NCBI RefSeq assembly: GCF_036588685.1
Contig: NC_086379.1
Coordinates: forward strand, 58,838,001-58,902,000
DNA: 64,000 nt
Reading direction: 5' to 3'
Origin: Mytilus trossulus
Taxonomy: Eukaryota
Part shown: in pieces, positions 6,386 to 55,904 of the stretch
Layout of the letters: every line of letters begins with the position of its first letter
Numbering within the stretch: position 1 is the stretch's first letter
Translations under genes and position numbers: made by a program
The notes under the pieces: model-generated
The model's input: only the letters and a program-made list of their open reading frames with translations
Database searches by the model: none
Told to the model about the DNA's origin: nothing

Positions 6386-6826
6386 TAAAGTCATCATAGA
6401 TACCAGGAGTAAATTGTGTATACGCCAGACGCGCGTTTCGTCTACAAACGACTCATCAGTAACACTCGAATCCAAAAAAGTTAAAAACGCCAAATAAAGT
6501 ACGAAGATGAAGAGCATTGAGAACCAAAATTCCTAAAAGTTTTGCCAAATACAGCTAAGGTAATCTATGCCTCAGGTAGAAAAGCCTTAGTATTTCAAAA
6601 AAATCAAAAATTTGTGAACAGTAAATTTATAAATATAACGATATCAAAAAATTAATGACAGTTCATGTCAGCACAAAACGTGCTGACTACTGGGCTTGCG
6701 ATACCCTCGGGGCAAATAAATCTCCACCAGCAGTGGAATCGACCCACTGGTTGTAAACAAACTTATCATAGATACCAGGACTAAATTTAGTATACGCAAG
6801 ACGAGCGTTTCGTCTACAAACGACTC
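6386..6826 (-). mobile_element. Hammerhead-containing retrozyme-like repeat (family A), about 1.2 tandem units of 372 nt
   Basis: TCATAGATACCAGGA...GACGCGCGTTTCGTCTAC recurs 372 nt apart. The same family occurs at 9.1k, 27.3k, 28.6k, 36k and 57.1k. Confidence 0.85.
6423..6464 (-). ncRNA. Minimal type I hammerhead ribozyme
   Basis: Minus strand reads UGUUA-CUGAUGA-GUC(GUUUGUA)GAC-GAAA-CGCGC-GUC-UGGCG. Core is intact and helix III is palindromic. Confidence 0.8.
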
Positions 6827-6833
6827 AAATCCA

Positions 6834-6920
6834 CACGACGGGTGCCGTATACGGTGCAGGAAATGCGTACCCTTCCGGAGCACCTCATTTCACTCCCGGT
6901 TTTTAGTGGAGTTCGTGTTG
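6834..6920 (+). repeat. Conserved structured motif of the PLE-associated 3' region (GGGTGC...TACCCTTCCGGAGCACCT)
   Basis: Homologous to copies at 15.6k (+), 27.5k (-), 47.0k (-) and 47.7k (-), with compensatory changes. Confidence 0.7.
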
Positions 6921-9020: not shown

Positions 9021-9452
9021 ATAAGCTGTATTTGATGCAACGTTTAGGAATTTTTAGTCCTCAATGCTACAAACGACTCATCAGTAACACTCGAATCCAA
9101 AAAAGTTAAAAACGCCAAATAAAGTACGATGATGAAGAGCATTGAGAACCAAAATTCCTAAAAGTTTGCCAAATACAGCTAAGGTAATATATGCCTCAGG
9201 TAGAAAAGCCTTAGTATTTCAAAAAAATCAAAAAATTGTGAACAGTAAATTTATAAATATAACGATATCAATGACAGTTCATGTCAGCACAAAACGTGCT
9301 GACTACTGGGCTTGCGATATCCTCGGGGCAAATAAATCTCCATCAGCAGTGGCATCGACCTACTGGTTGTAAACAAACTTATCATAGATACCAGGACTAA
9401 ATTTAGTATACGCAAGACGCGCGTTTCGTCCAAAACGACTCGAATCCACACG
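9021..9452 (-). mobile_element. Retrozyme family A copy with a short inverted fragment at its left edge
   Basis: 9067-9452 is near-identical to 6440-6838. 9021-9066 is a + orientation piece of the same family. The two hammerhead halves sit at opposite ends of the unit. Confidence 0.8.
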
Positions 9453-11175: not shown

Positions 11176-14100
11176 TGGTTGAACGTAATACAAAAACCGT
11201 TCCACAGATGATTTCAAATATGTTATACATGTCTAAACTTAAATCCACAACAAATTACAATATATGTGCCAAAATACCTGAACACTAAAATCCAGATAAG
11301 TGAAAATCCACTGTTCGCCACCGGCTATAATTTGAAAGTGACGACTACTTTCTGAAAATGTTTCTTATACGACGTCACTGAAGACACGCTAACATAGTGC
11401 ACGTGTACATTAATATGAAAGTGAACCAAAGTGACGGTTCTAGTAGACAAGTATGATTTTGGACCATTCAAACATTATAAAAAGGATAAATATGGAATTA
11501 AATACGATGCTTTAAAAACTTGTAATTGTTTTGTAACTATGAAAGATTATTCCAAGCAAGTGTGCAACAATGAAAAGATGTACGACCTAGTTTCGCGGAA
11601 AATACACGGGAAATTTGAATGAAATGTTTTTATTAAAAGAATACTGTCAATAATCGTGGCACAACACCGCACCACTTAAAGAAAAAAAATAGACTGCCCC
11701 TAGAATTGACATATTAAACATTAAATGAATGCTCAAATTTCAACATAAATAGCATACATATATAGCAGCAAAATAAAAGTCTCTTTATTAGTATTTTAAT
11801 CAAATCAAAAAGTTCTTTCTATTTTCTTGATTTAACGACACCAACAGAACTTCTTCTGATCTTCTTAGAGGATTTGGGCTGAGTCCCGGTTTTACTGTTT
11901 TGGAGTTTTTTCACTTCTTCTTGAAGAGCTGTCTTCCTTTTTTTCAGTTTTTCTATAAAATTACCAAACCGATGCACTAAAATGCATGCTCTTCTAAGTC
12001 TTTACGTTGATTACATTTCTACCAAATTATTTCCTTATTCCAAAATTTATTTATCTTTGGGATCAATGTTTATTTTCGCAATTTCAATCACTTCTTCTTG
12101 TATAAATATTTTGTCATTTATTCATGTTAATTCAAATTCAGTAAGGTCATCACCAACATTATTCAATCGTAAATGTATACCACTTATAGTTAATGTATTA
12201 TGCAGCCTTCACTACATGCTTTCAAAATAAAGGTACTTTTGATTGAGTTAATCCATTTCAATTGATTTTTTAAAGTGCGTCTTTCTTTATTGTGATGTTG
12301 AACTTTTATGTTCCCTCTATCATCTTTTCAAGCACATGAAATTTGTAAAATTCACATGAAATTTCTAAAATTTACGTGTGGTCAAGAATTATTCAAAGAG
12401 TCAGTCTTGTTCAACTTGGTCTGATAACTAAATAATTAAGTTTTATAAATGTTCATAGTTTATGATGGATGCACGATTTTCGGCAGCTATATTATGAATT
12501 GAAGCAAGTGTGGTGTTAGTATTATAATATACAGTGAATAAGTGCATTTCTAGTACCAAAATATAATGTGCTAAGTTGAAAAATATATTCTGCATGTGGA
12601 ACATAATGTTTATGTTTAGCGTTAAAGAACCAACAAAAGCAGCTTAATTAAAAGTGTTCTGCACGTTAAAAGATAGCTGGATTTAATGAATAAACATAAA
12701 AAGACATTTAACGATTTATCACATTTACTATGAATCAGAAAAATAGTGTTTAAGTTAATATTATAAGATAGCATCAAACAGGAATAAAATACTATGTCAT
12801 TCAAAAAAACGTGAAATGCATTCTTTAACTTTTCGAATAAATAAGAATAATTCCTTCTACTTAATATCAAAGGGAATATATATTAAAGAATTTACAGTAA
12901 AGCCATGTTTATGTAAAATAAGGAAGTATAGTTATTGCAGATAAATTATACCGATAGGTATTCGACCCAGACAATACGTAGATACTTTGATTAGTCCTCA
13001 ATTAAGCATTCTTTGTTCGTATGTTATAAAAATTTACCACCCCACAATTTATCGGAAATAGTTCTTGTAATTTAAGACACAAACATAAGTATGCTTATAA
13101 CTTGAATTTGCTGATTAAGTATCTAATACTGTAAATAATGTTTAGGGTTTCTTCCAAGGGAAGTCTTGTCAAGTGAACTTAGTTTTTATTCGCGTCTGAT
13201 AAGTTGTATTTCGAAATAAAAACGTGATTTTAATTTTGAAATTATGTCGGACAAGACATATATCAACCAATATATATAAATACCAGCAATCTATTAACAT
13301 AGTTTCTGAAAAAGTGGAACGCAAACAACATTGAATGCTACTTTGAACCCGGTATAGAACTCAATACTAAAAATCATTAGAAACGGGTACATTGACACAC
13401 AAACAAACTATTGTGTTGTTGCCTCATAATGTTTTTATTGTTCCAAAGATTGCTCACCCTATACAAAACAACATGTACGCTTTAAAGCAATCAATTTGTT
13501 AAAACTAGCACAGCCTGTTTCACATGCCGTGGCCATTTAAGTTAAAATCGGCGCTGATTATTTTTGGAAGATTGTAGAGGACAAATTAATTCGAGTACCC
13601 GGACCGAACTGAGTGAAATCAAATGTCTCGTCCTGTTATCTGGGCCTTTGCATCGAAATTTATCAGATAATTTCACTCGTTCATGTTAATCAATATTGCA
13701 CACTTTAACTCCACAAAAACATAAAGTTTGTGAAATACACACCTTTTGGAAATTGAGTCCATTGGAACGGATAAAAGTATATATAACAAATATACCGACT
13801 TCGACGGAAAGTTCAAATCGGAAAGTCTCTTTTTAAATGCATAATAAAAAGCTCAAACACACCAATAGACCGAAAAACAACTGTCGTATTACCGCCTTGG
13901 TACAGTAATTTCCGTATGTAGAAAATAGTGTTTGAATCTGATTTTACACCAAGAAAAACCTTACACTTCGATGAAAGTTGCTTAAAATTCCGCTAAATTG
14001 TCTTTGTATGAGCAGGAAATCTTCACAAGACCAAATGAATAATTATCAAGAATTCAGTATCTCGAAACGTCATGGATAGTCAAAGAAGAAATGACTTGTA

Positions 14101-18360: not shown

Positions 18361-19446
18361 TCAGGGATTTGTCGGATTTGTCCCTGTGTAAATAGTGATG
18401 GGGGGTTCATACCAGTTGACAACAGAGTATATTCCACAGTTGTTACAGTCTCGATCACTGCATTTCCTCTCTGGAAAAACGCACACCTGTCTGCAGCTGA
18501 GATTGAGGGGTTTGAAGTTCTTTGGTACCATTTTTCGAAAGGTTGTAAACTTCCGGGGAAATTCAGGGTGTAACTCCATAAATCTGCTGAAAGCTTCTCT
18601 CTTACTGCACAGGAGATGATGTTTAGCAACCACTTCACCATTAATCAAGACTGTGTCTTTTTTGTTTGGCATAATCCTAGAGTGTACCTCTAGAAATCGT
18701 TCTACCCTCGGTTCCCAAATATCATAAAGGACTCTTATTTTATATAATCTTTTTACTTGTTGTGCCTTTCTGGTCTTGTATTGTTGAAGGGTTTTTTTAT
18801 TCTTCCAAATAGACTCTGGTATTGACTTGTCATCAGCAAATGCAAGTGATCTTTTAGCCTTTTCTGTATGTGAGCTTGGTCTTCCTGCTCCAGTAATATT
18901 AAGGATATTGCTGATGTCACTTTCTGTATTACCTTCTAGCAGACCTTTTTGCCTTCGAGGTGTGGCATTCTTAATGATATGTTTCATGGTACTAGCCCAT
19001 GCTGTAGGCCTAGGGCTTTCTGGAAGAATTTTCCTTGCTCTTTCTGCACGCTTTCTTAGTGCAGGACCAGAGGAATAGTTTCTCACCCGACTTTGCTTAG
19101 GGTCTTTTGTCTCTGTATTATTGCAACCTTCTTTCTTCTTTTGTTCAGCTCTCCTTTTTCTACTTGCTTGTTTCCATTTTCTCTGTTTTATTTTAAAGTC
19201 ATCATTAAATTCTGCATCCAATATTCTTTTTCTTTTCTGTTTTTCTTTGTAGGCTTTGTTTTGATTTTTCTTTTTTTTCTGTACCTTTTCAAGTTGTCTT
19301 TGATTATTTTGAATTCTTTGCTGGTATTGTCTAGTCCTCTCTTTTGATGTCTGTTTTCCATTGCTCTGGTTTTGGTTGGGTCTATTTTGTACCAGTCTTG
19401 TTGATTTTCTAAATGCTGGTAGTTTCACTATAAGCTTCTTCATCAT
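18361..19446 (-). pseudogene. Truncated Sola2-like transposase N-terminal region (361 aa ORF)
   Basis: Basic coiled N-terminus, then F.ELHP.F...FTTFRK..PK......RQVCV and C.DRDCNNCG Cys motifs resembling Sola2-type transposases. No catalytic DDD domain before the TIR. Confidence 0.6.
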
Positions 19447-20621: not shown

Positions 20622-23609
20622 TTCTGTTAAATATCCAATCGCATAGCTGTTGATTATTTTGCTGTGGTTTTGAGAATTCACGGTAATATTCAGGTAAGTT
20701 AAAAGATCATTTTCCAAAATGTTTGGTGTACTGTTATTCTTTCCCGTTAGGTTACGGTTGGTTTGCCGGGGATAACTTTAAAGGTTATTTTTTTGAAAAG
20801 TTCCGTTTGCACACTTCGAAAGCTGGCATTCATTTTTTTAATTTGGTCGTTCCTGATGTTTCAGTGTAATTGTCTCCGTCTGGTACAGGTTTCAGGTTTT
20901 TCACGGAGTGTTTTTAATTTTTTATTTCATAGTGAAGTTTGCGTCACATATATTATAGTTGTAATCTTGGCTGTGTCTTCATGGAAGTAGTTTCCGCGGC
21001 ATACCAAATTCCTTGGGTTCTGAGTACTTGTATTCAAATCAATAGAAAGTACCTTTTGTATGAGGGATGGTGGGAAAGTCTGGTCGGAATAACAAATACA
21101 ACACTTAAACAAATCCTGGGAAGATCCAAAGCTTATGAGTTCGTGTCCGCGCAGATCCGACGTATATATAAATACGACTTTTCAGACGATTAAGGCAGTG
21201 CTCAACACATGGAATTATTGTCTATTTTAACTAGTTTAATAAACCACAATCGTTACTAGGTTCATAACCCCAATTTTGTATATTTAAAACTTTACCAATT
21301 AACCTTAAGTGTTTGCATGTAACTTCTAATACATTCTCCATTTTGACATTCCAATATTAAAGTCAAAGGGTGTCTTTAGACTGTCTTCTCGATCTTTGAT
21401 ATATATTTAGGATATTTATGACTGATAAACTACATTTTTAATGTATAGCTATCTTTGGATAATGAAATGAAGGCTTATTTTCCTGTCGCAATACTTTATG
21501 TTGTATGAATATAACAATCAAACTGGTAAAACTTAAAAAAACAAATCAAAGAAAATTTGGGTCATTTCCATGATGTAAAATTGAAGCAGCTATTATTTAA
21601 TAAGAAGAAAAAAACACTGAATAACAATGAAATATGATTAAAAACGTCTGTCAATTGATAGGTACACTTTTAATTTAATTTTGGTATATATGATGAGTTT
21701 ATTTACATGATGATGATGAATCCCTTGTATCCTCATCAATTTTGGATAAATAGAAAATATGGAAAAAATTAAACGGGCAATATCGGGTACTTATTCGTTA
21801 TAAGAAAAACATCATAGATTCACTTTTTTTTTTTTACAAAAGATCTTGAAATTTAAGACGGAAACAAGAAACATATTCCATTGAAACGTGTTACCTACCT
21901 AGAACAAAAATTAGGTTTATGAAAGAAATGACATGTAATGAAAGAGAAAATACACACTACGACTTCTTTACACGCGTTTCAGTATACAGCGATGCATAAT
22001 AGTATCCGTCGTGCGTACAAATGGTATAATGAAAAGAAATATCCTGGTTTATCATATAATTTGAATGATAATATTAACAGGATACGTGAGCAAATATAAC
22101 ACGAATAGAAAATTGAAAAACAGAATTGTAATCAAAAGTTCTAGACACTCCGGTTAAATATAATAGATTTCGGGCTTCACTGGGGCTATGGACTATGAAC
22201 TCGTGTTTTTTGTGATTGTCATTAATACCCCTTCGCCCGACAGCTCAGGAGATATATAACAGTGACGGAGAATATGAGTCCATATTTCCGTTAGATCCCC
22301 AGATAGCGTATTGAGAAATACTAGTAGGTGGGTTGCACGGTATAATATTTGATATTGAATTAAAAATTGTGATGGATATTGTATAGCAATATGTATAATT
22401 CAAATTATTATCATGGTATGAATTGGATCTCAGAATTGTTGGTATGAAATTGCTTCACCGCAGAATTACCTTAACAAGTCCACTTTCTCCATGTTTCGAA
22501 ATAAAACTAGGGGAAGTTAACCTTTTTAAGATTTTAAATATAAGACCAAAGTCGTTAAATTACAAAAAAAAACAGACTTTTCTGGAGTGCTTAGTTGACA
22601 GTTATTAACCATTATAAAGTATAAAGTGTAAAGCCCGGAAAACATTTAACTAGCATGTGGACTTTTATGCGACATTTAATCGTTGTAAGCTGAAAATATG
22701 TTACTGTATTTATGTTGAGAACGGAAATTATCAAATCTTTAACAGACTTCATCCTGTTTAAAATTGATTTCATAGAATTTGAATACTTCATACAGTCTAA
22801 GTCAAATAACCTACTATTGATAGACGGAATTGAAAAAAAAATACCAAGTCACTGTTATATTTTTTGGGTAAAAAACATATGGTTATGTAGGATTTGTTTG
22901 AAGAACTAATTCCAGGCGGACATGTAACAGTTAATATTGATCCGTCATGAAAAATAATTGGAAAATCGAGATATCTTCAAACCATATTGAAGATAAAATA
23001 CGAGAAGCATAACCGCTTTGTATGCTATATCCATAGCATTGTTGGTTATCAAGGTTATTATAAGAAAAAATATTCTGACAGACATTCTTTAAAATGACAC
23101 AAATGAAAAAAAATATATACAACTGTGTCTTGCAATGGGAACATTACATATCCAAGATCCATTTTTGTTTGTTTAGATTTTCATCTTATGATTTTAGACT
23201 GATGGTAAAATATGAAAGACTATTCGACCTGCGGTGACAAAGTGACGATTAATCGTCTCAATAAATAAACTTCAGTTCCAACATGAAAACGTGGTTATAG
23301 TTATTGGAATGATAGTTACTTATATATATATATCGATTATCCACTTTTTGGCAGTTATTATTCCGCTGAAAACGTATTCTTCTTTTTTTGCAACAACAAA
23401 AAAGAGAGTATTGTTTAACTAGATGGTTGTGTAGTGAAAAGTTGACCTATTTAAAACTAGACAAAGTGATGCCTCCGCACTCCACTCTGAGGTAACTGTA
23501 ATATAACAAAGTTAATGTAGAAATTTCTTTGATATACTATTGTGTCTGGGAGACACAATTGATGCCCTGCCGATGGAAAGTGATATTTTTAAATAACTAT
23601 AACATTTAA

Positions 23610-24090
23610 AAAGTAAAAACACAAACATACTGAACTCCGAGGAAAAATCAAAAAGGAAAATCCAAAATCAAAAGTCCAAAAACATCAAACGAATGGATAA
23701 CAACTGTCATATTCCTGACTTGGTACAGGCATTTTCTAATGTAGAAAATGGTGGATTGAACCTGGTTTTATAGCTAGCTAAACCTCTCACTTGTATGACA
23801 GTCGCATCAAATTCCATTACATTGTCAACGATGCATGAACAAAACAAACATACTCAAAGAGTAAAAATGTCAAAAATAGGGGTACAGCAGTCAATATAGT
23901 GTTATAATCTTAATATCACTATTAAAACAACAAATGTAACGAAGAAGCACAAAAAGGCATACATCATATTTAACATACTCATTTTGCTTTTCTTATACGA
24001 CCTAATTAATCTATGTACAGTTAGGATAGAAGGTTTTCAGTACTGGTGTAAAATTGTGCGTTTGAAATTCGCACAGGTAGACATAAAAAT
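23610..24090 (-). mobile_element. Dispersed short repeat family carrying a twister-like motif
   Basis: Reverse complement homolog of 40165-40640. Fragments at 13.8k, 31.6k, 40.0k, 44.7k and 47.3k. Confidence 0.8.
23703..23802 (-). ncRNA. Twister ribozyme-like motif (GGU/ACC, AC/GU variant)
   Basis: Minus strand reads ACUGUCAUA..GUGA-GA-GGU-UUAGCUAGCUAUAAAACCAGGUU-CAA-UCC-AC-CAUUUUCUA..UAGAAAAUG-CCUG-UACCAAGU-CAGG..UAUGACAGU. Confidence 0.55.
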
Positions 24091-31575: not shown

Positions 31576-31839
31576 CCATATTTTGTGCTATAAAACGTGT
31601 TCAATTTACCATTTTTTACATTTGAAAATACCTGTACCAAGTCAAGAATTTGGCAGTTGTTGTCCCTTTGTTTAATCTGTTTTGTCATTTGATTTTGACA
31701 TGTGATTAGGGACTTTTCGATTGAGTTTTCCTCGGAATTCAATATTTTGTAATTTCACTTTCCACTGCGATTTGCTAGTCTTTTGTCTTTGTTCAAATCA
31801 CCTTTTTTTTCGATTTATTTCATCGTTATTATGTGTAAA

Positions 31840-34304: not shown

Positions 34305-34770
34305 CACATAAATGACCATATAATTGATATTAATGTCAACACCCAAGTGCTGACAAATGGGTTCGTGATACCATCGGGGACGAAACGTCCACCGCAGTGG
34401 AATCGACCTAGTGGCGTAAATTATTATCAAAGGTACAAGGCTTATAATTTAATACGCCAGACGCGCGTTTCGTCTAAATAACTCATCAGTGACGCTCAAA
34501 TCACAATAGTTATGAAGCAAAACAAGTACAATGTTGAAGAGGACCAAAAAGTTATGCCTAGGATAAGGAAATCCTTAGTTTTTCGGAAAATTCAAAGTTT
34601 TGTAAACCGGAAATTTAAAATATGACCATATAATATTGGTATTCATGTCAACACCGAATCGCTGACTACTGCGTTTGTGATACCATCGGGAACAAAACGT
34701 CCACAAGCAGTGGCATCGACCTAGTGGTGTTAATTATTATCAAAGGTTACATGCTTATAATTTAATACGC
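34305..34770 (-). mobile_element. Retrozyme-like tandem repeat (family A', unit about 315 nt)
   Basis: ATCGACCTAGTGG..AATTATTATCAAAGG..CTTATAATTTAATACGC recurs about 315 nt apart, with a hammerhead in between. Confidence 0.8.
34455..34494 (-). ncRNA. Minimal type I hammerhead ribozyme
   Basis: CGUCA-CUGAUGA-GUU(AUUUA)GAC-GAAA-CGCGC-GUC-UGGCG. Helix I CGUCA/UGGCG pairs fully. Confidence 0.8.
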
Positions 34771-35935
34771 AAAATGCGAGGTCCGTCTCATAGAAAAGTG
34801 ATAAATAATGTAACCTAATAAGTAAACTATGTGTAACTTGTCATTATGACAATTGTTAAGAGATCGTCTATAAATATTAAGAGAAACAGACTCCACATCA
34901 AAACTCGTGTATAACGATATTTCTCCACCACTTTTAACAGTTAAATTTGAATTATATAAAAACATCGGCTAGCTTCGGGCTTTATATATTAAAATGTAAC
35001 TGTCTGGGTGTGAACATCGAATCACAATTTGCGCAGTGGTGGAATCTATATTTCTCTTATGTTTACTGCCGAAGAAGTTCTGTTGACCAGATTTATGCAT
35101 CCTAAGTCAATCGTTTGAGTTTTCATATATGCTCGTTTAAGACAGTTTCTACTCTTTGACCACCTTTCTGTTCCTTTCATCAACATATACCAACCTGCAA
35201 TGGTTACTCACACACTGCTACCATATCACTACACATAGATTTAGATGCTTTAAAAGGTATGATTATCGGGTAGTCTTAAATTAAATGTTACATCATGATG
35301 TATATTAATAAAAATGTTAAAAATCGGTCATATGTACCTAGAATGTACTGTTAGAGAACTGAAAGAAAATAGTTTTTCACACTTAGTAAACAAATCTGAT
35401 GGTTTTTGTTTGTTCTTTCCTGATGATAGATTACTGGATATTATACGTCTAGACCCTTCTATTCAAATACTAAATCACAAATTATGTTCTAATAAGTTTA
35501 ATGCAAGTGATTATGTTGAGGAATTATTTTGTATTTTCCCTTTTTGAATTGATGATCTGTTATCGGGCCATGAACAAAGGTAGTCTTGTCTGGTACAAAG
35601 ATTTAGCACAAATAATCCTTTATTTTTACAAGTTCAGAATGTGTCTGGAATCTTCAATGTGAAATTATCCAATAGTTACTATTTTAGGTTAATAATGGTA
35701 TCGGGAATTTATTAACCGACCACTTGTTACAGATGAAACGACATAAAAGGACACTTGTTACATTTATTGAAGGATGTCTTACTAATACGTGTCGAGTACA
35801 TCTAAAATAGCATTTTAGTCTTTCAATATAATAATGTGGTTCCTTACAATTAATCTCTGTCATACAAAATCATTGTTGCAATGGTATTTTTTTTCTGCTA
35901 TAGATATAGTCAGATGTGGTATGATGATTTATTTT

Positions 35936-36322
35936 CAACCACTGGGTCGATATTTATTTCACATAGGGTATCACAAGCCCAGTATAGCACTTTCTGTGCT
36001 GACAAAAAAGTCATGACATAAATTATCATTGATATTGTTATATTTATAAATCAACTGTCTTCAAAACTTTGATTTTTTTGAAATACTAAGGCTTTTCTAC
36101 CTCAGGCAGAGATTACCTTAGCTGTATTTGGAAACACTTGTAGGAATTTTGGATTTCAATGTTCTTCAACTTTGTACTTTATTTGGCTTTTTTTGGCTTT
36201 TTTTTTTTTTTTTTTTTTTTAACTTTTTAGGATTCGAGCGTCACAGATGAGTCTTTTGAAGACGAAACGCGCGTCTGGCGTATATATATAAAATTTAGTC
36301 GTGGTATCTATGATGAGTTTAT
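35936..36322 (+). mobile_element. Retrozyme family A monomer with a mutated hammerhead (36239-36280, CAGAUGA)
   Basis: CGTCA-CAGATGA-GTCTT(TTG)AAGAC-GAAA-CGCGC-GTC-TGGCG. The body is the reverse complement of 6386-6760. Confidence 0.85.
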
Positions 36323-36974: not shown

Positions 36975-37510
36975 ATAACACTTTTATATATTTGGATGAT
37001 GTATTAGCTCTCTTTGATGACTTTAGTGCACCAAAAAGATTCAATCTGTCGAATTGACTTCAACAAAACTAAAACTAACAATGACCACTGGATATCTATA
37101 TATTAAACCAGGAGCTTAATAACAAAACTAGTTATAAAAAGATGATTATTCCTTTTCTTTTGTTAATAATTCATTTTTTATATGGTGCAGTATCTTAATA
37201 TGCTGTCTGTGTATCTCAACTTGTTTGATTCGCTCGTATATGTTACAACGGATTTGATTTATACGAAAGAAATATTTGTTTTACTGAAACATTAATACAC
37301 CAGGGTTTTCAAAATAACAAAAATACATGTATTGTCGAAATGCGCATCTGGTGCAACAAAATTGGTACCGTTGATTTTATTACGAAACTTTATCATCAGT
37401 TTAAGGACATATTAAGTAAATATAAGTTCGTTCAAAAATGACGGCATTCACCCCAAACTTTTAAAGACTTATTCAGAAGGGATATAGTTACCATACTTTT
37501 GTCGTGTAAT
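36975..37510 (+). pseudogene. Highly decayed PLE RT fragment of a second family
   Basis: Across frameshifts reads TF.YLDDVLAL, KDDYSF, VSQLV.FAR, TETLIHQGF. Interrupted by a family C hammerhead fragment at 37325-37380. Confidence 0.6.
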
Positions 37511-37748: not shown

Positions 37749-38582
37749 CTGTTTGCATAGCATAAATTGTTCTAAATAATAAGGATATTCTTATCCCAAG
37801 CATAAAAACATAGCCGTATTTGACACAACCTTTTTCAACTTTTAATCTTCAGTGCTGTACAACTTTGTACTTTTTCACATTCCATCTTTTATATCTGGGC
37901 GTCACTGGTGAGTCTTGTGTGGACGAGGCGGGTTTTGGCGTATTGAATTTTAAACCTGATGCTTTTTGTTATAGATCTTTTAATCATATGATTCTTTGCC
38001 TAATACGTTCTCCTATTTATTTGTATTGTAGTCATGTAATTTAATGTTGTCATTCCAATGTTATATTTAACATTGTCATTAAAGTGCGAGGTTTGCCATG
38101 CCACAAAATCAGGTTCAACCCACCATTTTTATCTTTAAAAATGTCCTGTACCTAGTCAGGAAAATGGCCATTGTTATATCGTAATTCGTGTCTGTGTGTG
38201 TAACATTTTCACCTTGTGTTTCCGTTGTGTCGTTTGTTTTCTCTAATATTTGAGTGTGAATTCACATTACTATAAGACGTGTCACGGTATTTTTCTATCC
38301 CAAATTCATGTTTTTGGTTTTGATGTTATATTTGTTATTCTTATCGGATTTTGTCTAATGCTTAGTCCGTTTTTGATGCGTTTTGTTATTTGATTTTGCC
38401 ATGTGATTATGGACTTTCCGTATTGATTTTCCTCTGAGTTCAGTATTTTTGTGATTTTAATGTTGTGTCGTTGTTCTCTTATATTTAATGCGTTTCCCTC
38501 AGTGGTAGTTTGTTAACCCAATTTTGTTTTTTTCCAAATATTTACGAGTTTTGAATAGCGGTATACTACTGTTGCCGTTATT
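37749..38582 (+). mobile_element. Composite repeat (family B): degenerate hammerhead followed by a twister-like motif
   Basis: Highly similar to 42695-43461. Hammerhead remnant at 37899-37940, twister-like motif at ~38074-38170. Confidence 0.8.
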
Positions 38583-39566
38583 TATATGGTCTTTGCATCG
38601 GAAATAAACATATTTATCCCAAAACCAGTTGTTGGGATGATACGGGTTATGTTCTTTTCAAACACTTTATGATGGCATGATACTTAACCCCTAACGGGAC
38701 AAGTTTGAATGAGGTCTGAAGCTGGTATGTAAGTTACTGCTAGTAGTCCTTTGCTTAGTTGAGTGGAACCCTTACACGTTCGTCCAGCTGTAAGATTAAC
38801 GTTCGGTTCCGCATTTCTTGTTCATCTAAATTGTATAACTCATTGCGTAATGCTATCACCTACAATCACAGACAGACGTTGAATTCGGGAAGTGAGTCGC
38901 TACATTTCGTACTGATGTTGTTTGTCATCTTAAAAACGTGTTTTATTGTTCTTTCATTTGTTTTTGTTCTATTTGTAATATTACTTTTACTGTTGGATTG
39001 ATTTATGTGATATCTATTTAACGTGGCTCGGTACTTATACATCCCGTCAATTTGTTTGTGTTGTCTTTCATTTTTTGGTGGTTTGTTTTGTATATTGGAC
39101 TTTTTGTATTTCTTTGGTTCCTATAACTTGACTCTGTACTTAAAAATATTCAATCAGTATGATATTATTTATTTTATGAATTACAAAATACGTTGAGCCA
39201 CAAACGTCAAAATCATTCAATCGCGCAGAAGAATGTGTGGGTTTTTTTTGGAAAAAAAAGTTTGTTTCACCCTCAGCTGCCACTTTATGTAATGCTAAAG
39301 TTGAAAGAAAAAAATTGTTTTCGACTTGTCGCGAAAAAAATAGATTGCGGTGGGGAAAAAAAAATTGTCCAGAAAAAAAACATACCCCCCCCCCCCCCCC
39401 CCCCCCCCGAAAATCAAATGGTTGCTGCCTTACACGATGATAACTGCTGTACCCATATTTTTGACTTTTATTTTTTGTATCTTTTTAGTTAAAGCATCAT
39501 TGTAAATATAACGGAATTTAACGAGACTTTTATATAAGCTTTGGATTTCAAATATGTTGGCCACGA

Positions 39567-39610
39567 GCATTACTGAAGAGACATGTATTGTCGAAATGCG
39601 CATCTGGTGC
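39567..39610 (+). ncRNA. Minimal type I hammerhead ribozyme (AUC cleavage triplet)
   Basis: GCAUUA-CUGAAGA-GACA(UGUAU)UGUC-GAAA-UGCGC-AUC-UGGUGC. All helices pair and helix III contains the palindrome UGCGCA. Confidence 0.85.
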
Positions 39611-39898
39611 AGAAAAATTGGTACCGTTAATTTTAATACTACCACTTGGTCGATGTCTCTGCTGGTGGACTGTTAGTCCCCGAGGGTTTCACCAGCCCAG
39701 CCATATGAAAATGAGGAGGTTTTTTTGTGTTATTTAAACTTGCTGTAACATAATGTTTGAAATTATGATTAATGAAGGAATGTATCTCCCTCATGCAAAG
39801 CTCTGAATCCTGTCAAGGATTTGGCTATACTTTTTGAACCTTTTGGTTTACAGCTCTTCGTCTTTTATATAAGCTTTGAATTTCAAAGATTTTGGTCG

Positions 39899-39936
39899 CT
39901 GAAGAGACATGTATTGTCGAAATGCGCATCTGGTGC
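39899..39936 (+). ncRNA. Second family C hammerhead (core intact, 5' arm of helix I deleted)
   Basis: Core identical to 39573-39610, but the upstream GCATTA is missing. Confidence 0.65.
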
Positions 39937-40164
39937 AGGGAAATTGGTACTGTTAATTTTATTTGATCATCAAAGTGAGAGGGTTAGCGCTATAGGTTTA
40001 ATCCACCATTTTCTACATTTGAAAATGCCTGTACCAAGTCAAGAATATGACAGTTCTTGTCCATTCGTTTTTATGTGTTTTGTTGTTGGATTTTGCCGTG
40101 TGATTATGGACTTTCCGAATTGATTTTCCTCTAAGTGCAGTATTTTTGTGATTTTACTTCTAGA

Positions 40165-40640
40165 CTTTAACCTGTGCGAATTACAAACGCGCATTTTTAC
40201 ACCAGTACTGAAAACCTACCATCCTTTATGGGTGGATTTTACTTTTTAAAAAAAATTCGTGTAATATAGCAAAAAAAGAATGTTAAACTTGATGTAAGCC
40301 TTTTTGTGCTTTTTCGTTACATTTGTTGTTTTTATAGTGATTAAGATGATAACACAATGTTGACTGATGTACCCCTATTTTTGACATGTTTACTTATTGT
40401 GTCTGTTTGTTTTGTTCACGCATCGTTGCCAATGTTATGGAATTTGATGCGACTGTCATACAAGTGAGAGGTTTAGCTAGCTATAAAACAAGGTTCAATC
40501 CATCATTTTCTACATAAGACATGTCTGTACCAAGTCAGGAATATGATAGTTGTTATCCATTCGTTTGATGTGTTTGAACTTTTGATTTTGCCATTTGATT
40601 TGGGACTTTCCTTTTTTAATTTTCCTCTGAGTTCAGTATT
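40165..40640 (+). mobile_element. Dispersed repeat with a twister-like motif at 40452-40550
   Basis: Reverse complement homolog of 23610-24090. Confidence 0.8.
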
Positions 40641-42694
40641 TTTGTGTTTTTACTTTTTTATAACTTAGAAGTTTTAATAGTTTTTTGTTTCCACAGTCTT
40701 ACTTTAGTTTACCTCGTTCACATTTTATGAAATAAAACACAATACTTAGATCCAAACCTTGCCGACAGATTCTCATTTGGGTAGTAAGTAAATAACCGTT
40801 CTAGAGGAATACCCTTTGAATTTTTTTATAAATTTCTAACTAAAGTTTAGCTCCTTTTAATTTTATGAAAATCGTGCACAATTGTTTTAAAGCAAACTTG
40901 AGCGCGGCTACTATTCTTCTGTTGTTTGTCAACTAATATTTAGTTGTAGGGCTTTTGCTCAAATTCAAGTATTTTTGGAAAATCATTAGCAACTTTGAGG
41001 GTTGGTTTTGTTTTTTAAAACATAATAAATTTGAAGCAAAACGAGTATGATATTTAAATTTTTTTTAAAAGTGATGTTTATTTTTGAAAGATTTATAATT
41101 ATTCATTGAACTTCCGAGTTAAAATGACCCGAAAATTAATTTCTTCTTCTTTGTAACCTCCATAGGAACGATCAGATACAGATGTTTTGTTGTTTTTAAA
41201 TTAGATCCAGTTTTACTAGTGGAAACATAAATATGTCCCTGGGAAATAGTGAGACAACACTGTTGTTTAATCTTACGGTTTGTAATTGTGTTCATAAAAC
41301 CTCTTCAACGATTCAATTAAAATTTTGAGTGAACATTAAACTGCCTTAACAGTTTTTATGACAGTAATAATGTCCTATCAAGAAAGAACATGTGTAAGAT
41401 ACAAGCTTAAGAATAGCGGATTAACTGTGATTAAATATCATTGTCATGAGAAATCGTTATACCAATTATCAAAAAGAGAGAGAAAAAAATCAGAAGGAAA
41501 CCTAAATCAACAAGCTTTACATTCAATACAGATTATAACAAATTTATTGCATAATAAAATAACCTTTTACCTTGAACTTTCTTAGGGATATTAAAACATA
41601 TCTCCATCAATAGTGTAACAAGGTTTCTACTTATGAGGCATTCATGTCATCATTCTCACTGGAATCAACTTTTTTTTGTATCTTTGTAACTTTTCAGTTG
41701 GTCTAAAATACTATATGTAAAACGAGTAAACAACCATTCACATCCTTTTTATTAAGATCAGGCGCCTGCACTACTACAATTTCACATATAATGCAAGTTT
41801 TCAAAATCTTATTCAGCAGTGTTACTCTTTGATAAAAAAGGTTTATCGTGATTTAACATTTTATAACATGTTATTATGAAATTAAATTAAATACCGCTTT
41901 AGGTCAGAAATTAAATGAAATAAACACATATTTAAATCAATGTATTGCTAAGGACTTGAGCGTTTACACGGGATGCCAAAATAGCATATGGCAAAACCAA
42001 AGGTACTTTATTTGAATGATTTGCAACACGTGACTTTGTCCCTTTTGATCAAATTACTTCCCTTAGATTAAGTCGGATAATCCAGTCCTTTTCCGTCATG
42101 TACCTAAAACTAATGTATCTTTAAAAACTCCCTATGGCGGAAATTTACTAAATTGCTAAGTAATTTTAATGGAAAATTATTAAAATTTGACTTTTTACGA
42201 AATGGGAAGGTTGAAATCAACATCTTTTTAAAAGAATTTGCCTGAAAACGTAAGAAAGCAGGTAAGTAAAAAGTTATTTAAATTTAAAATTCAACCTACA
42301 AGGTGTTTTCCTATATGCGAACAAATCATGAACAAAATCTTCATGCATGTGTGTTTCTGTCTTCAATCTTGCTATTTTACGATTTACTGCATTTTGATTG
42401 ATCTTAATATATCAATTACACAACGGTTAAGCTTCCGATTTTCTAAACTTAAAAGACCGAAAGATTTCCGAGTATACAATGACCATTGGTACACGGACAG
42501 AAGCCTAAATCATGTAAAATTCACCTTATGCCAACAAATTATTCATTCTACATAGGTATTTGTATATTGACATTTTTATTTTAAGGGCTTATATAATATT
42601 ATTGTAAAGGCTTCCGTCATGATAAGGCAAAATGGCCGCTATGCAAATTTGCAAATAACCCAAATTTTGCAATATGGTTTAAATTTTGCAATTT

Positions 42695-44694: not shown

Positions 44695-47574
44695 TATATG
44701 ACACTGTCTTACAATGAAGAGGTTTATCTTGAAATACAACCAGGTTTATCCCTCCATTTCTACATCAGAAATGCTGTACCAGTTGTCTTACAATCGTATG
44801 ATGTGTGTGAGCTTTTGATTTTTTCATTTCACATTCTGATTTGAATATACTAGAGTTCAGTATTTTGGAGTTTTCATACTTTTTATACCTCGGAAGTTAC
44901 ATTATATTTTTCACAATTCATTCTTTACGAAATTTCAATAATCTAAAACCACATTCCAAGACTTGCACATTCAGATGTCTATAAATGATGTCTTTGTTTT
45001 TTATTATTTTTTTTTTATAAAGTTCTTGCATCTCATTATATCTTATGAGATTTGAGATTCATGGATTTATTAATATTTAAAGAGATGTGGTATGATTGGC
45101 AATTCGACAATTATCAACTTAATATAACATACGTTCAAATCACTTTACTAACAAACGAAATATGACAGACATGAACAACGGCAACTACTGGACTACTCCT
45201 GACTTATTACTGGCACATACAATGTAAAGAATGTGGTCGGGTAAACATATAATAATGAACGGTTTTTTTTAGCGTATAAACCCCCTCCATTATTAACCTG
45301 GGGCAGTGATGTAACTAACAGTGCTCCATATTAAGGACAAGCTATAACAATAACTTGCAATTGGCTTTTCTAAAAAGATAGGTACTTCTGAAGCAAGAGG
45401 ACCTGTCACATATATACTCATTGTCATATAAATTTTTTAAAATGCACTTCTGGTCACTTCGCCTCTGATTGTGTTTTTAGGGGTAACACGACAGGTGTCA
45501 TACGTAGAACAGGATCTGCTAAAAATTATTAGCACTATACGTGTAGCATACTCAAAACCACAAACACATGATTGCATTTGCTCTAATCTCTTTTTTTTAA
45601 ATGTGCATTAAAATTTGCCACTGGACGTTAGGCAAGATGCAATCGTTCAATTAAACTTTCATTCAAAAAGAAGTTATAAACAGCGATGATATATTGTGTA
45701 GGTTAATAAATTGCCCTTTCAATAAAATCGATAAATAGTATGTACTATGTGAACAGTCATTACAGTATATTTTCTTAGAAATGAGGGACGAATTACCAAA
45801 TGGACAGTCAAACTCATAAATCTAAAACAAACTGACAACGCCATGGCTAAAAATGAAAAAAAAACAGAAAAACAATTGTACACATGCCACAACATAAAAA
45901 ACTAAAGAATAAACAACACGAACCCCACCAAAAACCATATAGAAAGATACATGTGCATTGTGTAGACATCAAACGAATATGATAATGAAGTTTATTACAT
46001 AAAAGTTGTCTGAAGCATGTAAATTTGCTTCAGCTGCGTTCGTATCTTATGTGATTATTTGTTTATTTTTAACGAAAACTGTTTGATAAATCATGTGCAA
46101 TCGCAACATATGTATCAGTAGCACATGCATACTATAATGTTGGAAGACAATCTGATACGTAATTAAGACTGAGTAATTGTCATATAATGATTATAATATA
46201 CTTTGAACCCCAAATCCTTTGGGTTGAGACATTTGTAAAACAAATAAAAGTACAGTACTATGAGTTTGTTAACACGCAGATGTCAATCAAGAATTGGGGA
46301 CCTTCACTTGGTGAATGTATGGAAATGGCTCTTATATTGTGCAGTCACACTGGTGGTTTAGGTATTACTTTTTAACAATTGTCTACACCTACAGTTGAGC
46401 ACGACTTCGACAGGTAAGATGTGAGGTGTCGTCTCAAAAATAAAAAGTGAACATAATACTATTCATCATTATTGGATGTATTGCTTGAAATTAATTTGAT
46501 TGGCAATGATACAATTTTCTACCGTTGTCCAAAAAACATGGAATTTTTTTTTAAATTTAGAATAAAGACGATTAACTTTAAAAAAGAAGAGAAACAAATC
46601 GATCTCTGATCGTCTTAAAGGGAATCACTTATGAAAACGAAGAACAAAATGTTACATAATTAACTAAACAGTTAATATAGTTTTATTGACCAAATCAACA
46701 TTATCAAATCTAGAAAAGGGATATAGTTTGCCTCCAATGAGTTGATTATCGGCATTTATTTTTTTATATTATCGTCTTTTGTCTATAATGACGACACTCA
46801 AACGATTAACTGCAATTGGCTTTATCCTACAATAATTGAATATCAAATTTTAATGGTCAGCTAGTACTTTAAAGGGGCATCAATTATGAAATTCATGTTC
46901 ACAGATAGATTTGACCAAAAATCTAATATTTGATTTATCACATACAAAACGTCTCAGTAAAAATGAAAGGAAACAAGACAACTAAAGACTAAGCAACACG
47001 AACCCCAACAAACACTTGGGGTGATCTCAGGTGCTCCGGAAGGGTAGGCGTATTCTGCTCCAAATGTGGATATTATTTTTTCTTAACTCATGATTGCATC
47101 TGCACGTGTATTAGTATAAAAAGCATTAAAGTTACATTCGTCCATTAAAATCAGGCTAAAAATACAAGCTTTTAAGCACTTCATTGAAGTTTGTTTTTTT
47201 CATTTGAATGTTGAATGAAGCCTGAATGAATATTTGAGCTACTATACTTTTATTTTTGTGTAGCTATTTACAGCAAAACAGTTGACAAAAAGTAAAAATC
47301 ACAAAAAAACTGAACTCCGAGGAAAATTCAAAACGGACAGTCCATAATCAAAAAACAAATTAAAAAGCTCAAACACATCGAACGAATGAATGAAAACTGT
47401 CATATTCCTGACTTTGTACTGGAATTTTCTTATGCAGAAAACGGTGACTTGAACCTGGTTTTAAAGCTAAGAAAAAATCTGAATTGTGTGACAGTCGCAT
47501 CAAATTCCATTATATTGACAACAAAATTGTCTGGCACTGTGTTTATTATTTAACAGGTTAACAACATAAGTAAA

Positions 47575-49301: not shown

Positions 49302-49649
49302 TCACACAGAATTAGATCCTGATTGCGATCCCGAATGGCCATTTCTAGTGCTCAATGTCATTGTCATCGTATGTTCTTCAAGAAGAGAGTTTGTTCTTCT
49401 AGCTTTCTTGCAACAACATGTCGCAAATATTTTATAAAATCCTCGACGAAATGTTTTATTCATCCAGACATATACAAACGGGTTGTAACAGGCATGACTC
49501 ATCGCAAGCCAGAATGAGGTATTCCATATCAGTTTTGTGTATTCCTGCTCGTAAAGCCTAGGATCATAGTCTCCTACTAATGTTACAATATGAATCGGTA
49601 GCCAACACATTCCATAAACAAGTACCACAATTATCATCATCTTTACCAT
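49302..49649 (-). CDS. Luqin/RYamide-type neuropeptide GPCR, last coding exon (TM6-TM7, C-tail)
   Basis: MVKMM..CWLP..WLAMSHACYNPFVY..CCCKK. AG acceptor at 49651-49650 joins the upstream exon in phase 0. Confidence 0.93.
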   Translation of the reverse strand: MVKMMIIVVLVYGMCWLPIHIVTLVGDYDPRLYEQEYTKLIWNTSFWLAMSHACYNPFVYVWMNKTFRRGFYKIFATCCCKKARRTNSLLEEHTMTMTLSTRNGHSGSQSGSNSV

Positions 49650-50719
49650 CTGTAATTATAAATATTGATATACATTATAAATTCATCATGATTCCAAACT
49701 TACATTATCTATGTACTTTGAGTACATGTTGCTCATTAAAGTTTGAATTACCAATACTTTAGACGATCGATATAATCTTCAACATATGAAACTTATTGTC
49801 TATCCTTAAAAACAAGTTATTGTTTAATTTAAGTTTACATGTTCTAGGAGATATTTGAGGGACATTTGACTATGCGTCATTATATTCGTGAAGAATTAAT
49901 GTTCATTGGTAAATGTTTATCATGAATTTAACAAAACACATATTTTGAGTCTTGCATATTGATTTTGTCGATATAACGAAATTTTAATCCACGAAACATG
50001 TCTAACATAGATACAGGAAGATGTGGTATGAGTGCCAATGAGACAATTCTCCCTCCAAGTAACAATTTATAAAAGTAAACCATTATAGGTCAAGGTATGG
50101 CCTTCAAAACGGAGCCTTACATGCTTACTTGAGTCTATTAACGGAAGAACTCGTAACAGACCTAATCAACAACTGTGTCCCTAAAATCATGCGGAAGTTC
50201 ATTGATATTCGACTCCACAAGAACACTACAAACAACTGAAATGTTTAGGAATATCCATATGACGAAGTTATGATGAGGTATGGTTTGAACTTTTTTTTTC
50301 TCTGGAAATAAGAAATTAAGTAACATTCTTTCAAAATAGTTAATTTTATTGATATGCAAGTACGATGAAATACTCTGAATACTTTTTAAGCAGACATTTT
50401 AATGTTGAAATAACTAAGGTCTTATTGGTGTCATAAACTTGTTAAATTTGACAAATTTGTTTAAATATACAATTTTACTCATTGTTTTTGCAACATAAGA
50501 TAATAACCAAGGGGTCTTAAACAAAAATATAGTTTAGCATGATAAACATCGTTGTTAGAAGATATGCTATATACAGCAACAACAATGTTTCACATAAATT
50601 ATGTTGATATATTATTTGGGTGTGTATGGCTATCTTTGATATATTAATGACAATTAAAAAACTGGAGCTTTCTTGCAAGTTTTTGCAATTGCGCATCAAG
50701 TTCAAATAGTTTAAAGCTC

Positions 50720-52401: not shown

Positions 52402-53720
52402 TTATAACAGAATTACTTTTTACGTGTTTATCACATAATGACTATGCATAAATTTGAGGCAACAGTAGTTTACCGATGTTCAAATTAAGTACGGTGACCT
52501 ATAGTTGTTAATTTTGTGTCATTTTGGTATCTTGTGGAGAGTTGTCTCATTGGCAATCAGTTGTTGATTAGGTTTGTTACGAGTTCTTCCGTTTATAGAT
52601 ACAAAATAAAGGAAAATACAATAGGAACGAGACAAGGTGCGTCGGTAGAAAGCCTCTGATGCATGCATGCATCTTTCAATATACAAATCCACACCAGTCA
52701 AAATGTCCCAATTGGGAATAAGACACAATGTAATGTCCAGATCAGACGGTTATTCTGGTAACTAAATACTGCGATCACATGTCGCTAGTTAGTTGAAAAC
52801 CAATAGGTGATTCGTTTAGGTGATCATTGTAAATTTGGAATCGTCATTTTTGTTATGGATTTTAGTATGCAATGGTTCATTTTACTTTATTCATAGTATT
52901 TGTTTTCCTTCACACGCTTATATTTATTACATGTATGACCTTGCAGGTAATTTGCATCTTCTATTTCTATTTGTATAGTAACGGTAATTGAGATGATAAT
53001 GTCGCTCTTTCAAATGAAGACTTGAAAAAGTGTGTTTTGCGTAGAAATATTGAAAGATTTGATAATATTGCAAAATCTTCAATGTTATGATTTAACATGG
53101 AATATTGCACTTGTTAACTTATCTAATACTTTTTTCTATGCATGTTGAATTGACGTTTGTTTTTTGTTGCACTTCAGTGTTCTGTTGGTTCGTAGTTTTC
53201 CTCTTGCAGTTGATGTGTTTCTCTCAGTTTAAGTTTGTAACCTGAATTTGTTTTCTCCAAATCGATTTATGACTTTTGAACAGCGGACATGTATTAATGT
53301 TGCCTTAGTTTATTCAACTTTGGCCTAAGATCACAGTAGTCTTTTTCGGTTATGGACTTATTATGAAGTACTGGATCTTTATTCTGTCGCTACGTAATTC
53401 ATCGGTAAAGCTCGACTTAAAACAGTTTCACAGCAATTGAATACAATTTCTTTTCCTTAAAATTTGTATAACAGATAAAATGTGTACGAAAATATATAGA
53501 ATTTAGCTTACTCTGACTGTTTTTTTAGTTGAAGAGAATGTGTTTGAGCGTTTTATTTTGTTTAATAGCTACTGTAGAACCACGATTATGCAAACATGAC
53601 TAATTAAAAATATCCTTGGTGGTTTCTCGTTACTGCTTAATTTGATTATTGCAAATTATGATTACAACGTGCATAAAAAACCAACTCAGAAATGGTTATA
53701 GCCGGTTATAAATTCTTTAC

Positions 53721-54464
53721 CTTTCTCTTTGAATTCGCTAATCGTTCATCTCTCATCGGGACAGCTTCACCTGGTGTTTTCTTTATCCATATAATGTAAC
53801 CTATTCTACTATAGGTACAAGCTAGAGCCATTAGAGGAATAAAATACTGAAGCAGCAAGATAACCAGACTATATACAGATCTGTTCATATCTCCTGTAAA
53901 AACCTCAATACACTGGCCCTTAGGACATTGATCGGTGTCATTTGAATATAAAATTTTAGATGTTATGGCAGTCGGTAAAGGCACAGCGGCAGACATAATC
54001 CATACACATATCAGTACTAATACCACACCTTTGTTAGTTATTTTTGGTCGTAGCGGATGTAAAATAGCTATGTATCTGTCAATACTCATTGCTAGCATTG
54101 TCAACGCACTAGAAAATACAGCAACAACTTGAATGTAAGTTCCCAGTGGGCAGGTGAATGATCCGAACGGCCAATAATGAAATATCAGATTTGCCATAAT
54201 TGTTATAGGCAACATTAATGCTTTGATGATATCGCTAAAGGCAAGATTTAATAGAAATAAATTGGTAACACTGCGCATTCTGTGATCATTAATTATAAGG
54301 TAGCACACAACGCCATTTCCAAATATAGCCACAATTAGAACAACACTGTACATAATGAGAAGAAAGCTCTCCCACGGACCGATCTCAGATATACAAACAT
54401 CGTCTATATCAATTACAGGAAAAGATTTGTCTGTGCTGTTCTCCATGGTGTGATGTTCTATCAT
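53721..54464 (-). CDS. Luqin/RYamide-type neuropeptide GPCR (rhodopsin class), coding exon TM1-ICL3; spliced protein about 363 aa
   Basis: GN in TM1, LAFSD in TM2, WPFG..C, DRY, YFIPL. ICL3 PGEA...RD.RL..SKRK|MVKMM is typical of RYamide/luqin receptors. GT donor at 53720. Confidence 0.92.
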
Positions 54465-55904
54465 TACAGTACTTTTATCCTGAAGAAATACAAATAATTT
54501 GCAGTTAGTATGAAATTAATCTGTGATGAATATTATGAAGTACATTTCTTTTTACGTACATAATTTACATTGAACAAGGAAACGTTGTCATTTTATTGCA
54601 ATCTGTTGTCAGTTGATATGCATGATTGGTCTTTCAATAGTAAGTAAACAATTGTATAAAAAATTAACTCATGTAAATATATGTTTGAACAAATATTTTG
54701 CTATAGACATGCAGGTAAATATGCCGTTGACATGGCATTATGGCATTGGAATGTTTGCCTGTAAACACGAACTCGAGTACAATACACCTATACTAAACGT
54801 TTTCTAGTAGAAAAAAAGTGCACCGTTCGTACATTAAAGCCCTGTAGACTATCGTAGTATAACCGTATATATTAAAAACATGTGGTGGCTGTTAAACCAT
54901 AAATTTATCTGATTAATTTTTTTTAAATGTTTTGAAACCGACACATTTTTGTTTTACCCCCTCTTCGGTGTTTTATTCAATTTCGGGCTTTCAAATTCTT
55001 TGTCTTCGAGCATTACTAAAGAGCCATTAATTGTCGTATTGTGCATCTGGTGCAATAAAATTGGTACTGTGTGTGTTATTAAAACTGCAGGAATGTATCA
55101 TTCAACAATGTTTAGTACGAAAACATTCACCTGCCCGTTCAGCACATTAAATATTCATCAATATTAGTGCATTCAGTTGATAAATATGCTTTTGTTTTAT
55201 TGATAAATTATATACATATACATATTCTGTATATTAGTTAAATGAATTCGAATTACAATTGATATCGCAAATTAATCACGTTATAACATATACATGGTAA
55301 TTTTCGTAAAAATTATCGACACGCGGATTATTTTCTGAAACATAATCTGACCAGTCACTAAATTGTTGGTTTTTTTTAATTACCAACATACAGTATTAAA
55401 ACTGGTTTAAAACTATATTGATGCTTCATAGAGGCAAAAGTGTCACTGTTGTTCAAAATTCATGAATCGATTGAGAGAAAACAAATCCGGGTTATAAACT
55501 AAAACCGAGAGAAACACATCACCTATAACAGGAAACAACGAAACAACAGAAACTGAAGTTCAACAAAAACAAACAACAACGCAACTTACATGTAAACGAA
55601 CTATGACATAAAAACTGCCATATTCTTGACTTGGTAAAGGACATTTTAAGATAAAAAAAAAATGGTGGGTCCAAGCTGGTTTTGTAGTAAGCCAAACCTC
55701 CCGCTTAATGGCAATGTTGGAAATACCACTAAAATGACAACATTTAATAAAATTCAATATTGCCTCCGTGGTTATTTATTGAGACATGAATGTAAAAAGA
55801 CAATTACAGTTTCATGTATATACATTAAAATTAAAGATAGAAAGAAAGCCTGAGAAAAACGTCGAAACTTGTCAAATTGATGAACAGTTACAATCCAAAG
55901 ATAG

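Follow-up and report, generated by a model that had tools for sequence, protein, structure and literature searches.

Two hammerhead ribozyme cores of identical sequence lie 326 nt apart in a 64,000-nt stretch of the Mytilus trossulus genome (contig NC_086379.1, hereafter the window). They raise the question whether this locus is a tandem retrozyme that still releases a 326-nt monomer, as a sequence-only reading had proposed, or a copy that no longer does so. Two hammerhead-bearing families were distinguished in the window, here called A and B, and the locus under study belongs to family B. Its features are summarized together with those of its surroundings in Table 1.

Table 1. Features of the family B locus and of the repeat that surrounds it (positions in the window)
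Feature	Position	Strand	Description
Family B retrozyme insertion	39529-39963	+	~1.3 units; left end variable, right end family-typical
First terminal repeat	39529-39635	+	Against 39864-39961: 90 identities, 8 mismatches, one 9-nt gap
Hammerhead 1	39567-39610	+	Complete type I fold cleaving after C39604; helices I, II and III of 6, 4 and 2 bp, the last closed by a GCGC loop
Stretch between sites	39605-39930	+	326 nt, 38% GC, non-coding
Conserved stem-loop region	39640-39700	+	77-78% identity to family A copies; adjoins common right end of insertions
Damaged segment	39701-39720	+	20 nt where family reads have ~35 nt including a UUCG hairpin
Second terminal repeat	39864-39963	+	End 31-33 nt past cleavage site
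Hammerhead 2	39895-39936	+	Core, helices II and III and helix I 3' strand intact; site after C39930
Host dispersed repeat, left half	39433-39528	+	Matches the intact copies near 40345-40660 and 23605-23910 at 74/96 and 77/96 aligned bases
Host dispersed repeat, right half	39967-40159	+	160/191 and 157/179 aligned bases identical to the intact copies
Host-repeat copies	39433-40159, 40352-40655, 23611-23902, 31599-31760, 38368-38459, 47290-47456, 13772-13930

The two hammerheads and the length of the unit

Both cores, which start on the + strand at 39573 and 39899, are of type I and display CUGAAGA, a GACA/UGUC helix II, GAAA, a palindromic helix III and AUC, with sites at C39604 and C39930. Identity between 39573-39611 and 39899-39937, which cover the core up to and including the 3' strand of helix I, was complete (39/39 nt). 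The hammerhead descriptor retrieved four matches in the window, the two of family B and two of family A on the - strand (34489 and 6459). Its chance expectation was a mean of 0.005 in 200 Markov simulations, a single one of which gave any match, so that the twin cores and AUC sites pointed out in the sequence-only reading are far above chance. Rfam searches at the gathering threshold gave no match over the whole window, missing all four descriptor hammerheads, and at E<=10 on 39300-40300 they returned five unrelated weak matches and no ribozyme.

Hammerhead 1 is complete. It carries U39571 in place of the family C, which turns a C-G into a U-G pair; C was encountered in 512 of the 533 reads of RNA run X21. 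In hammerhead 2 the 5' strand of helix I is deleted, 9 nt being missing behind 39895, and what remains is a fortuitous helix of 4 bp, three of them G-U. Among the indel rows listed, family reads restored these 9 nt either as one insertion (63/350 in X21, 25/257 in X22 and 19/91 in X24) or as a split insertion (162/261, 89/155 and 33/58, respectively). Li et al. 2026, in the available part of their work, define an active retrozyme copy by a complete hammerhead in two consecutive units; at this locus hammerhead 2 is devoid of the helix I 5' strand, and the first hammerhead alone is complete.

The spacing of the terminal repeats is 335 upstream of the 9-nt gap and 326 downstream of it. In the damaged segment, read depth dips between 39693 and 39715, and the sequences of the loose ends recorded at 39700 and 39721 overlap, together giving ~35 nt with the UUCG hairpin. 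Once the 9-nt and the net 15-nt losses are restored from the reads, the family unit amounts to 326 + 9 + 15 = ~350 nt, and the unit of family B would thus be ~350 nt, not 326. The spacing at the locus and this family length both lie within the 150-450 bp of head-to-tail units bounded by hammerheads in metazoan non-LTR retrozymes. The hairpin missing at 39701-39720 is present in both families (6660-6690 in family A) and its stem changes are compensatory, which suggests selection on RNA structure. The 326-nt monomer folds at -87.3 kcal/mol (z -2.70, with 2 of 100 shuffles as good), and the longest ATG ORF in the doubled unit reaches 26 aa in sense and 51 aa in antisense orientation.

These results modify the sequence-only reading on several points. 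Its functional 326-nt monomer is not supported, since that length is deletion-shortened, hammerhead 2 is broken and nearly all reads differ from the locus. The tandem organization stands for the two cores but not for an array: the element is a 1.3-unit insertion, and the four rows obtained with Tandem Repeats Finder on the window include none at 39529-39963. Likewise, all helices are indeed unlike those of family A with the fold kept, but the helix I GCAUUA/UGGUGC that it gave for the family is found at this locus in the first hammerhead alone.

Insertion into a dispersed repeat and the common right end

The family B element interrupts another dispersed repeat. The two host halves are consecutive parts of intact copies, and one host base separates the left half from the right. 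The empty site was also encountered: a joint from 39528 to 39967 with a single G between was displayed by six contigs of X16 and, in the three RNA runs, by 35, 27 and 24 reads, respectively. Bases 39964-39966 at the insertion junction are assignable to neither side. No target site duplication was found at the 39529-39963 insertion, where the longest shared word is a 6-mer missing from the empty site; according to the available passages of PMC7229834, a long duplication is an optional feature of retrozymes. Further family B fragments occur in the window at 37325, 54986 and 10025 and, together with the empty-site joints, they reveal the dispersed mobile copies by which retrozymes are recognized.

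The host repeat is ~310 bp long and abundant, its copies displaying a common right end and a varying left end, and it is transcribed on both strands. A run of 24 C at 39385-39408 is its left neighbour.

A common right end was also observed for the retrozyme copies. Among 15 aligned window ends, eight fell within a common zone past the cleavage site, two from family B (+31 and +35) and six from family A (+41 to +48); the others comprised one worn family B end at +23, two family A ends running into the next unit and four low-score alignments. Behind 39635, loose ends of low agreement were recorded in 147 reads of X22, 197 of X24 and 293 contigs of X16, and depth fell thereafter. The common ends are located directly before the stem-loop region 39640-39700, present in both families, which may be a candidate binding or start signal for a reverse transcriptase. 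Fixed at 31-48 nt past the site, the right end points to internal priming of the Penelope type. A linear monomer released by cleavage would terminate at the site itself, so that the template would have to span it, as a circle or an uncut multimer.

Internal initiation of reverse transcription, with a stem-loop downstream of the hammerhead, is documented for a Penelope-like element of Anolis, whose insertion in vitro took place without need for hammerhead cleavage (PMC11167929). As far as the available parts of the reports on Poseidon of Anolis (PMC11167929) and Naiad (PMC8557442) describe them, Penelope-like elements resemble family B in that they are partly tandem and truncated at the 5' side, end at a fixed position downstream of the hammerhead and have a stem-loop at the start point. 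Unlike family B, their own hammerheads are minimal or absent, and the family B locus is without ORF. The window's 12 longest ORFs (at least 110 aa) included no reverse transcriptase or GIY-YIG Pfam family and no autonomous partner element. The window also contains two exons of a rhodopsin-family G-protein-coupled receptor on the - strand (53706-54515 and 49302-49655, Pfam 7tm_1) and, at 18361-19446 (-), a 361-aa stop-to-stop frame matching no Pfam family, whose Atlas neighbours are unnamed eukaryotic proteins (0.92-0.94).

Family RNA and relation to published mussel retrozymes

RNA runs were chosen by species label, X21, X22 and X24 being mapped to the family B locus and X21, X23 and X24 to family A. 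On 39440-40100, they supplied 3121 (X21), 3037 (X22) and 1997 (X24) reads, of which 10, 6 and 25, respectively, were 99% alike to the locus, a scarcity that does not prove silence of the locus as the runs may come from another species or individual. At position 39807, reads unlike the window numbered 722/725 in X21, 510/518 in X22 and 152/156 in X24. Since almost no read matches the locus, the family RNA comes from other copies; embedded copies in other transcripts add to the family B reads. In the unit interior (39808-39830), first mates on the - versus the + strand were 589:162 in X21, 317:220 in X22 and equal in X24. The lean of X22 was reversed at 39532-39623 and the host repeat displayed a small opposite lean. 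For family A, which lies on the - strand, X21 and X23 showed the mirror-image excess and X24 showed none. The strand excess leans towards hammerhead-sense family RNA, in one study.

Upstream of 39527, reads carried on into the 3' portion of the unit itself (198 in X21, 92 in X24), a head-to-tail linkage that arises from circles or tandem transcripts alike. No 39930->39605 joint occurred among the 15 joints listed, and at the family level such a back-junction is not diagnostic, since a circle junction and tandem read-through give identical sequence. Read starts piled up at 39927, 3 nt before C39930, in all three RNA runs (45/198, 36/92 and 5/19), and this was the sole pile-up in 661 nt. Two places were listed for family A (6818 and 6672, X23), none at its site, a weak control given that the pile-up threshold was a fifth of local depth and depth is high at that site. 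As it lies 3 nt off the site and no counterpart was listed for family A, the pile-up at 39927 is at most a hint of self-cleavage in vivo.

A tRNA-derived SINE with a hammerhead would begin with a tRNA-like head carrying A and B boxes. ARAGORN reported no tRNA gene in the window. Words resembling the A and B boxes of RNA polymerase III were noticed at 39605-39612 and 39649-39658, with tRNA-like spacing. They overlap the helix I 3' strand and the stem-loop, and a run of seven T is found at 39720, within the unit. A bacterial promoter scan, irrelevant to the locus, gave three hits versus 2.9 expected.

The family B unit was collinear throughout with the family A copy at 6428-6799, with 218 identities over 319 aligned bases (68%) and an alignment score of 211, the maximum of 100 shuffles being 100. 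All three helices differ in sequence between the families, with pairing retained. Family A copies, compared by eye, match the 375-nt retrozyme of Mytilus galloprovincialis in the available text of PMC4918200 (Additional file 11). They are located at 6385-6835 (-), 9067-9450 (-), 34320-34850 (-) and 35939-36322 (+), the first two being 94.9% identical over 394 nt, and family A fragments were recorded at 27278, 28535, 31910, 42756 and 57071.

The available passages of PMC7229834 (Cervera and de la Pena 2020) report ~5000 type I hammerheads in M. galloprovincialis, forming two families with repeats of 350-390 bp. They further describe an element that self-cleaves slowly and whose circles are abundant, a 353-nt dimer construct and ligation by RtcB. 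As family B falls in this size range and is collinear with the published-type family A, it is most likely the ~350-nt family of that paper, the agreement with the 353-nt clone being one of size. In these passages and those on the 375-nt form (PMC4918200), the M. galloprovincialis retrozyme resembles family B by its type I hammerhead, two-pair helix III with tetraloop, unit of 350-390 once deletions are counted, low GC content, absence of coding capacity, self-pairing and abundant RNA. The locus differs from it in comprising 1.3 units, in its damaged second hammerhead and in the missing hairpin, at 68% identity to family A. The class proposed in the sequence-only reading, a second family of mussel non-LTR retrozymes, was thus upheld by the collinearity with family A, the resemblance of the latter to the published 375-nt element and the abundance of the RNA. 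Our literature search yielded no printed family B sequence and no fixed right end for mussel retrozymes; both could be present in supplementary material to the 2020 paper and the preprints.

Competing readings and significance

An alternative to an inactive copy is that the locus continues to produce an RNA of 326 nt, with the enzyme half of hammerhead 1 acting on site 2 through the palindromic helix III as a double hammerhead, or intact family RNAs doing so in trans, after which hammerhead 1 would cut its own site. The deletion took the enzyme-side strand alone and left the substrate side of site 2 intact. The cross form, for which the geometry of dimeric hammerheads was used, has a 6-bp helix I and an 8-bp palindromic helix III. 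Its forced-fold penalty on the locus transcript is the smallest of three (6.3 kcal/mol, versus 10.2 for hammerhead 1 and 16.3 for hammerhead 2, in models that ignore tertiary contacts and co-transcriptional folding), so that a 326-nt product is conceivable, with no reads supporting it. The cores also remained unchanged amid differing flanks (6/96 differences between the terminal repeats outside the deletion edge, 0/39 in the core bases; p ~0.04, post hoc), for which either chance or gene conversion may account. The available passages of PMC7229834 describe cleavage as dimers in amphibian retrozymes, namely the newt satellite and axolotl Rtz_331 and Rtz_353, to which family B is likened, by description, for its 330-350-nt unit, its type I hammerhead and a palindromic helix III loop permitting a dimeric fold; yet the amphibian elements form long tandem arrays and require dimers, unlike this locus. 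Moreover, all three forced forms lie above the free fold, the pairing probability of helix I was at most 0.0001 in local folds, locus-matching reads are nearly absent, as is the 39930->39605 joint among those listed, no promoter is known and the UUCG hairpin is lost. For Xenopus genomic dimers, eight of nine tested were without cleavage, as stated in the available part of bioRxiv 10.64898/2026.07.22.740005. On balance, we regard continued release of a 326-nt RNA as unlikely.

Other readings concern the nature of the element rather than its activity. The hammerheads could be passengers, either of a spread at the DNA level, by unequal crossover or excised DNA circles, or of a pseudo-LTR left behind by an autonomous Penelope-like element. 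The missing target site duplication and the cleavage-independent Penelope-like insertion in vitro (PMC11167929) are in keeping with this. So is the link of vertebrate retrozymes to pseudo-LTRs, which those of Xenopus resemble, in the available part of bioRxiv 10.64898/2026.07.22.740005, where mussels are unmentioned. We hold it to be very improbable, since in both families the right end is fixed and the left ends vary, and in view of the compensatory changes that distinguish all three helices of one family from those of the other, of reads that run head to tail into the unit and not into an ORF, and of a clean insertion into the host repeat. Family B might also represent an undescribed mussel family, neither of the two published. 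Its identity to family A is just 68%, and the available content of the 12 supplementary files of PMC4918200 holds only a family A-like element and no family B word. This appears quite unlikely against the two families of 350-390 bp and the 353-nt construct in the available passages of the 2020 paper (PMC7229834), the read-based unit of ~350 nt and the abundance of the family in DNA and RNA runs. Finally, the sequence-only reading had noted a twister-like motif after hammerhead 2, which would make the locus a composite of two hammerheads and a twister ribozyme. We rejected this candidate: the stretch is the start of the host-repeat right half, which in empty sites adjoins the left flank. Its likeness to the twister consensus is superficial, in short GA-GGG and GGUUUAAUCC words, and a descriptor without P1 matches the stretch, but it also matched 22 of 30 shuffles. 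With P1, the descriptor matched none of four test stretches, its sensitivity being 10/18 on true twisters and 1/7 on P5 controls, as it is weak on permuted types. At E<=10, Rfam gave no twister here or in an intact host copy, while 18 of 20 control loci (out of 133 fetched) were found. Compared with twister ribozymes as available in RF03160, RF02684 and the report on the T-variants of Schistosoma Perere-3 (PMC8501958), the likeness is limited to a few short words, and the stretch displays neither a covariance-model match nor a P1/P2/pseudoknot set. A composite element is thus extremely improbable.

We consider it likely that the locus is a worn copy, 1.3 units long and probably inactive, of a hammerhead repeat that is transcribed, most likely a ~350-nt mussel non-LTR retrozyme family, which was inserted in a dispersed repeat and whose hammerhead 2 likely lost its helix I arm afterwards. 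Circular RNA from this copy is probably scarce or absent. A Penelope-like reverse transcriptase may initiate internally at a constant position, 31-35 nt past the site and next to the stem-loop. On a circle or an uncut multimer it would then read through the cleavage junction, so that the product would exceed one unit, its right end being fixed and its left end variable. Such a 1.3-unit copy would have landed within the host repeat and decayed later, the helix I arm of hammerhead 2 included. Self-cleavage of multimers, ligation by a host ligase and accumulation of circles are carried over here from the published M. galloprovincialis element, and the family RNA would be supplied by intact copies elsewhere, likely not by 39529-39963.

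A bolder proposal combines a Penelope-like enzyme starting at one internal stem-loop with broken copies that stay in the cycle as an intact hammerhead half cuts the surviving site through the palindromic helix III. We see it as rather unlikely. If true, dead retrozymes would be parasites of live ones, and shortened, non-self-cleaving circles would exist.

The locus most likely represents an already known kind of element, one worn copy among thousands of the published one, and as a locus it is of small importance. It does call for caution in scans, since identical cores do not amount to two working ribozymes, nor does the spacing at one locus give the unit length of a family. The proposed Penelope-like mobilization becomes testable through the right end that copies have in common next to a conserved stem-loop, and the one-sided deletion offers a naturally occurring construct with which double-hammerhead cleavage of an invertebrate retrozyme could be tested.
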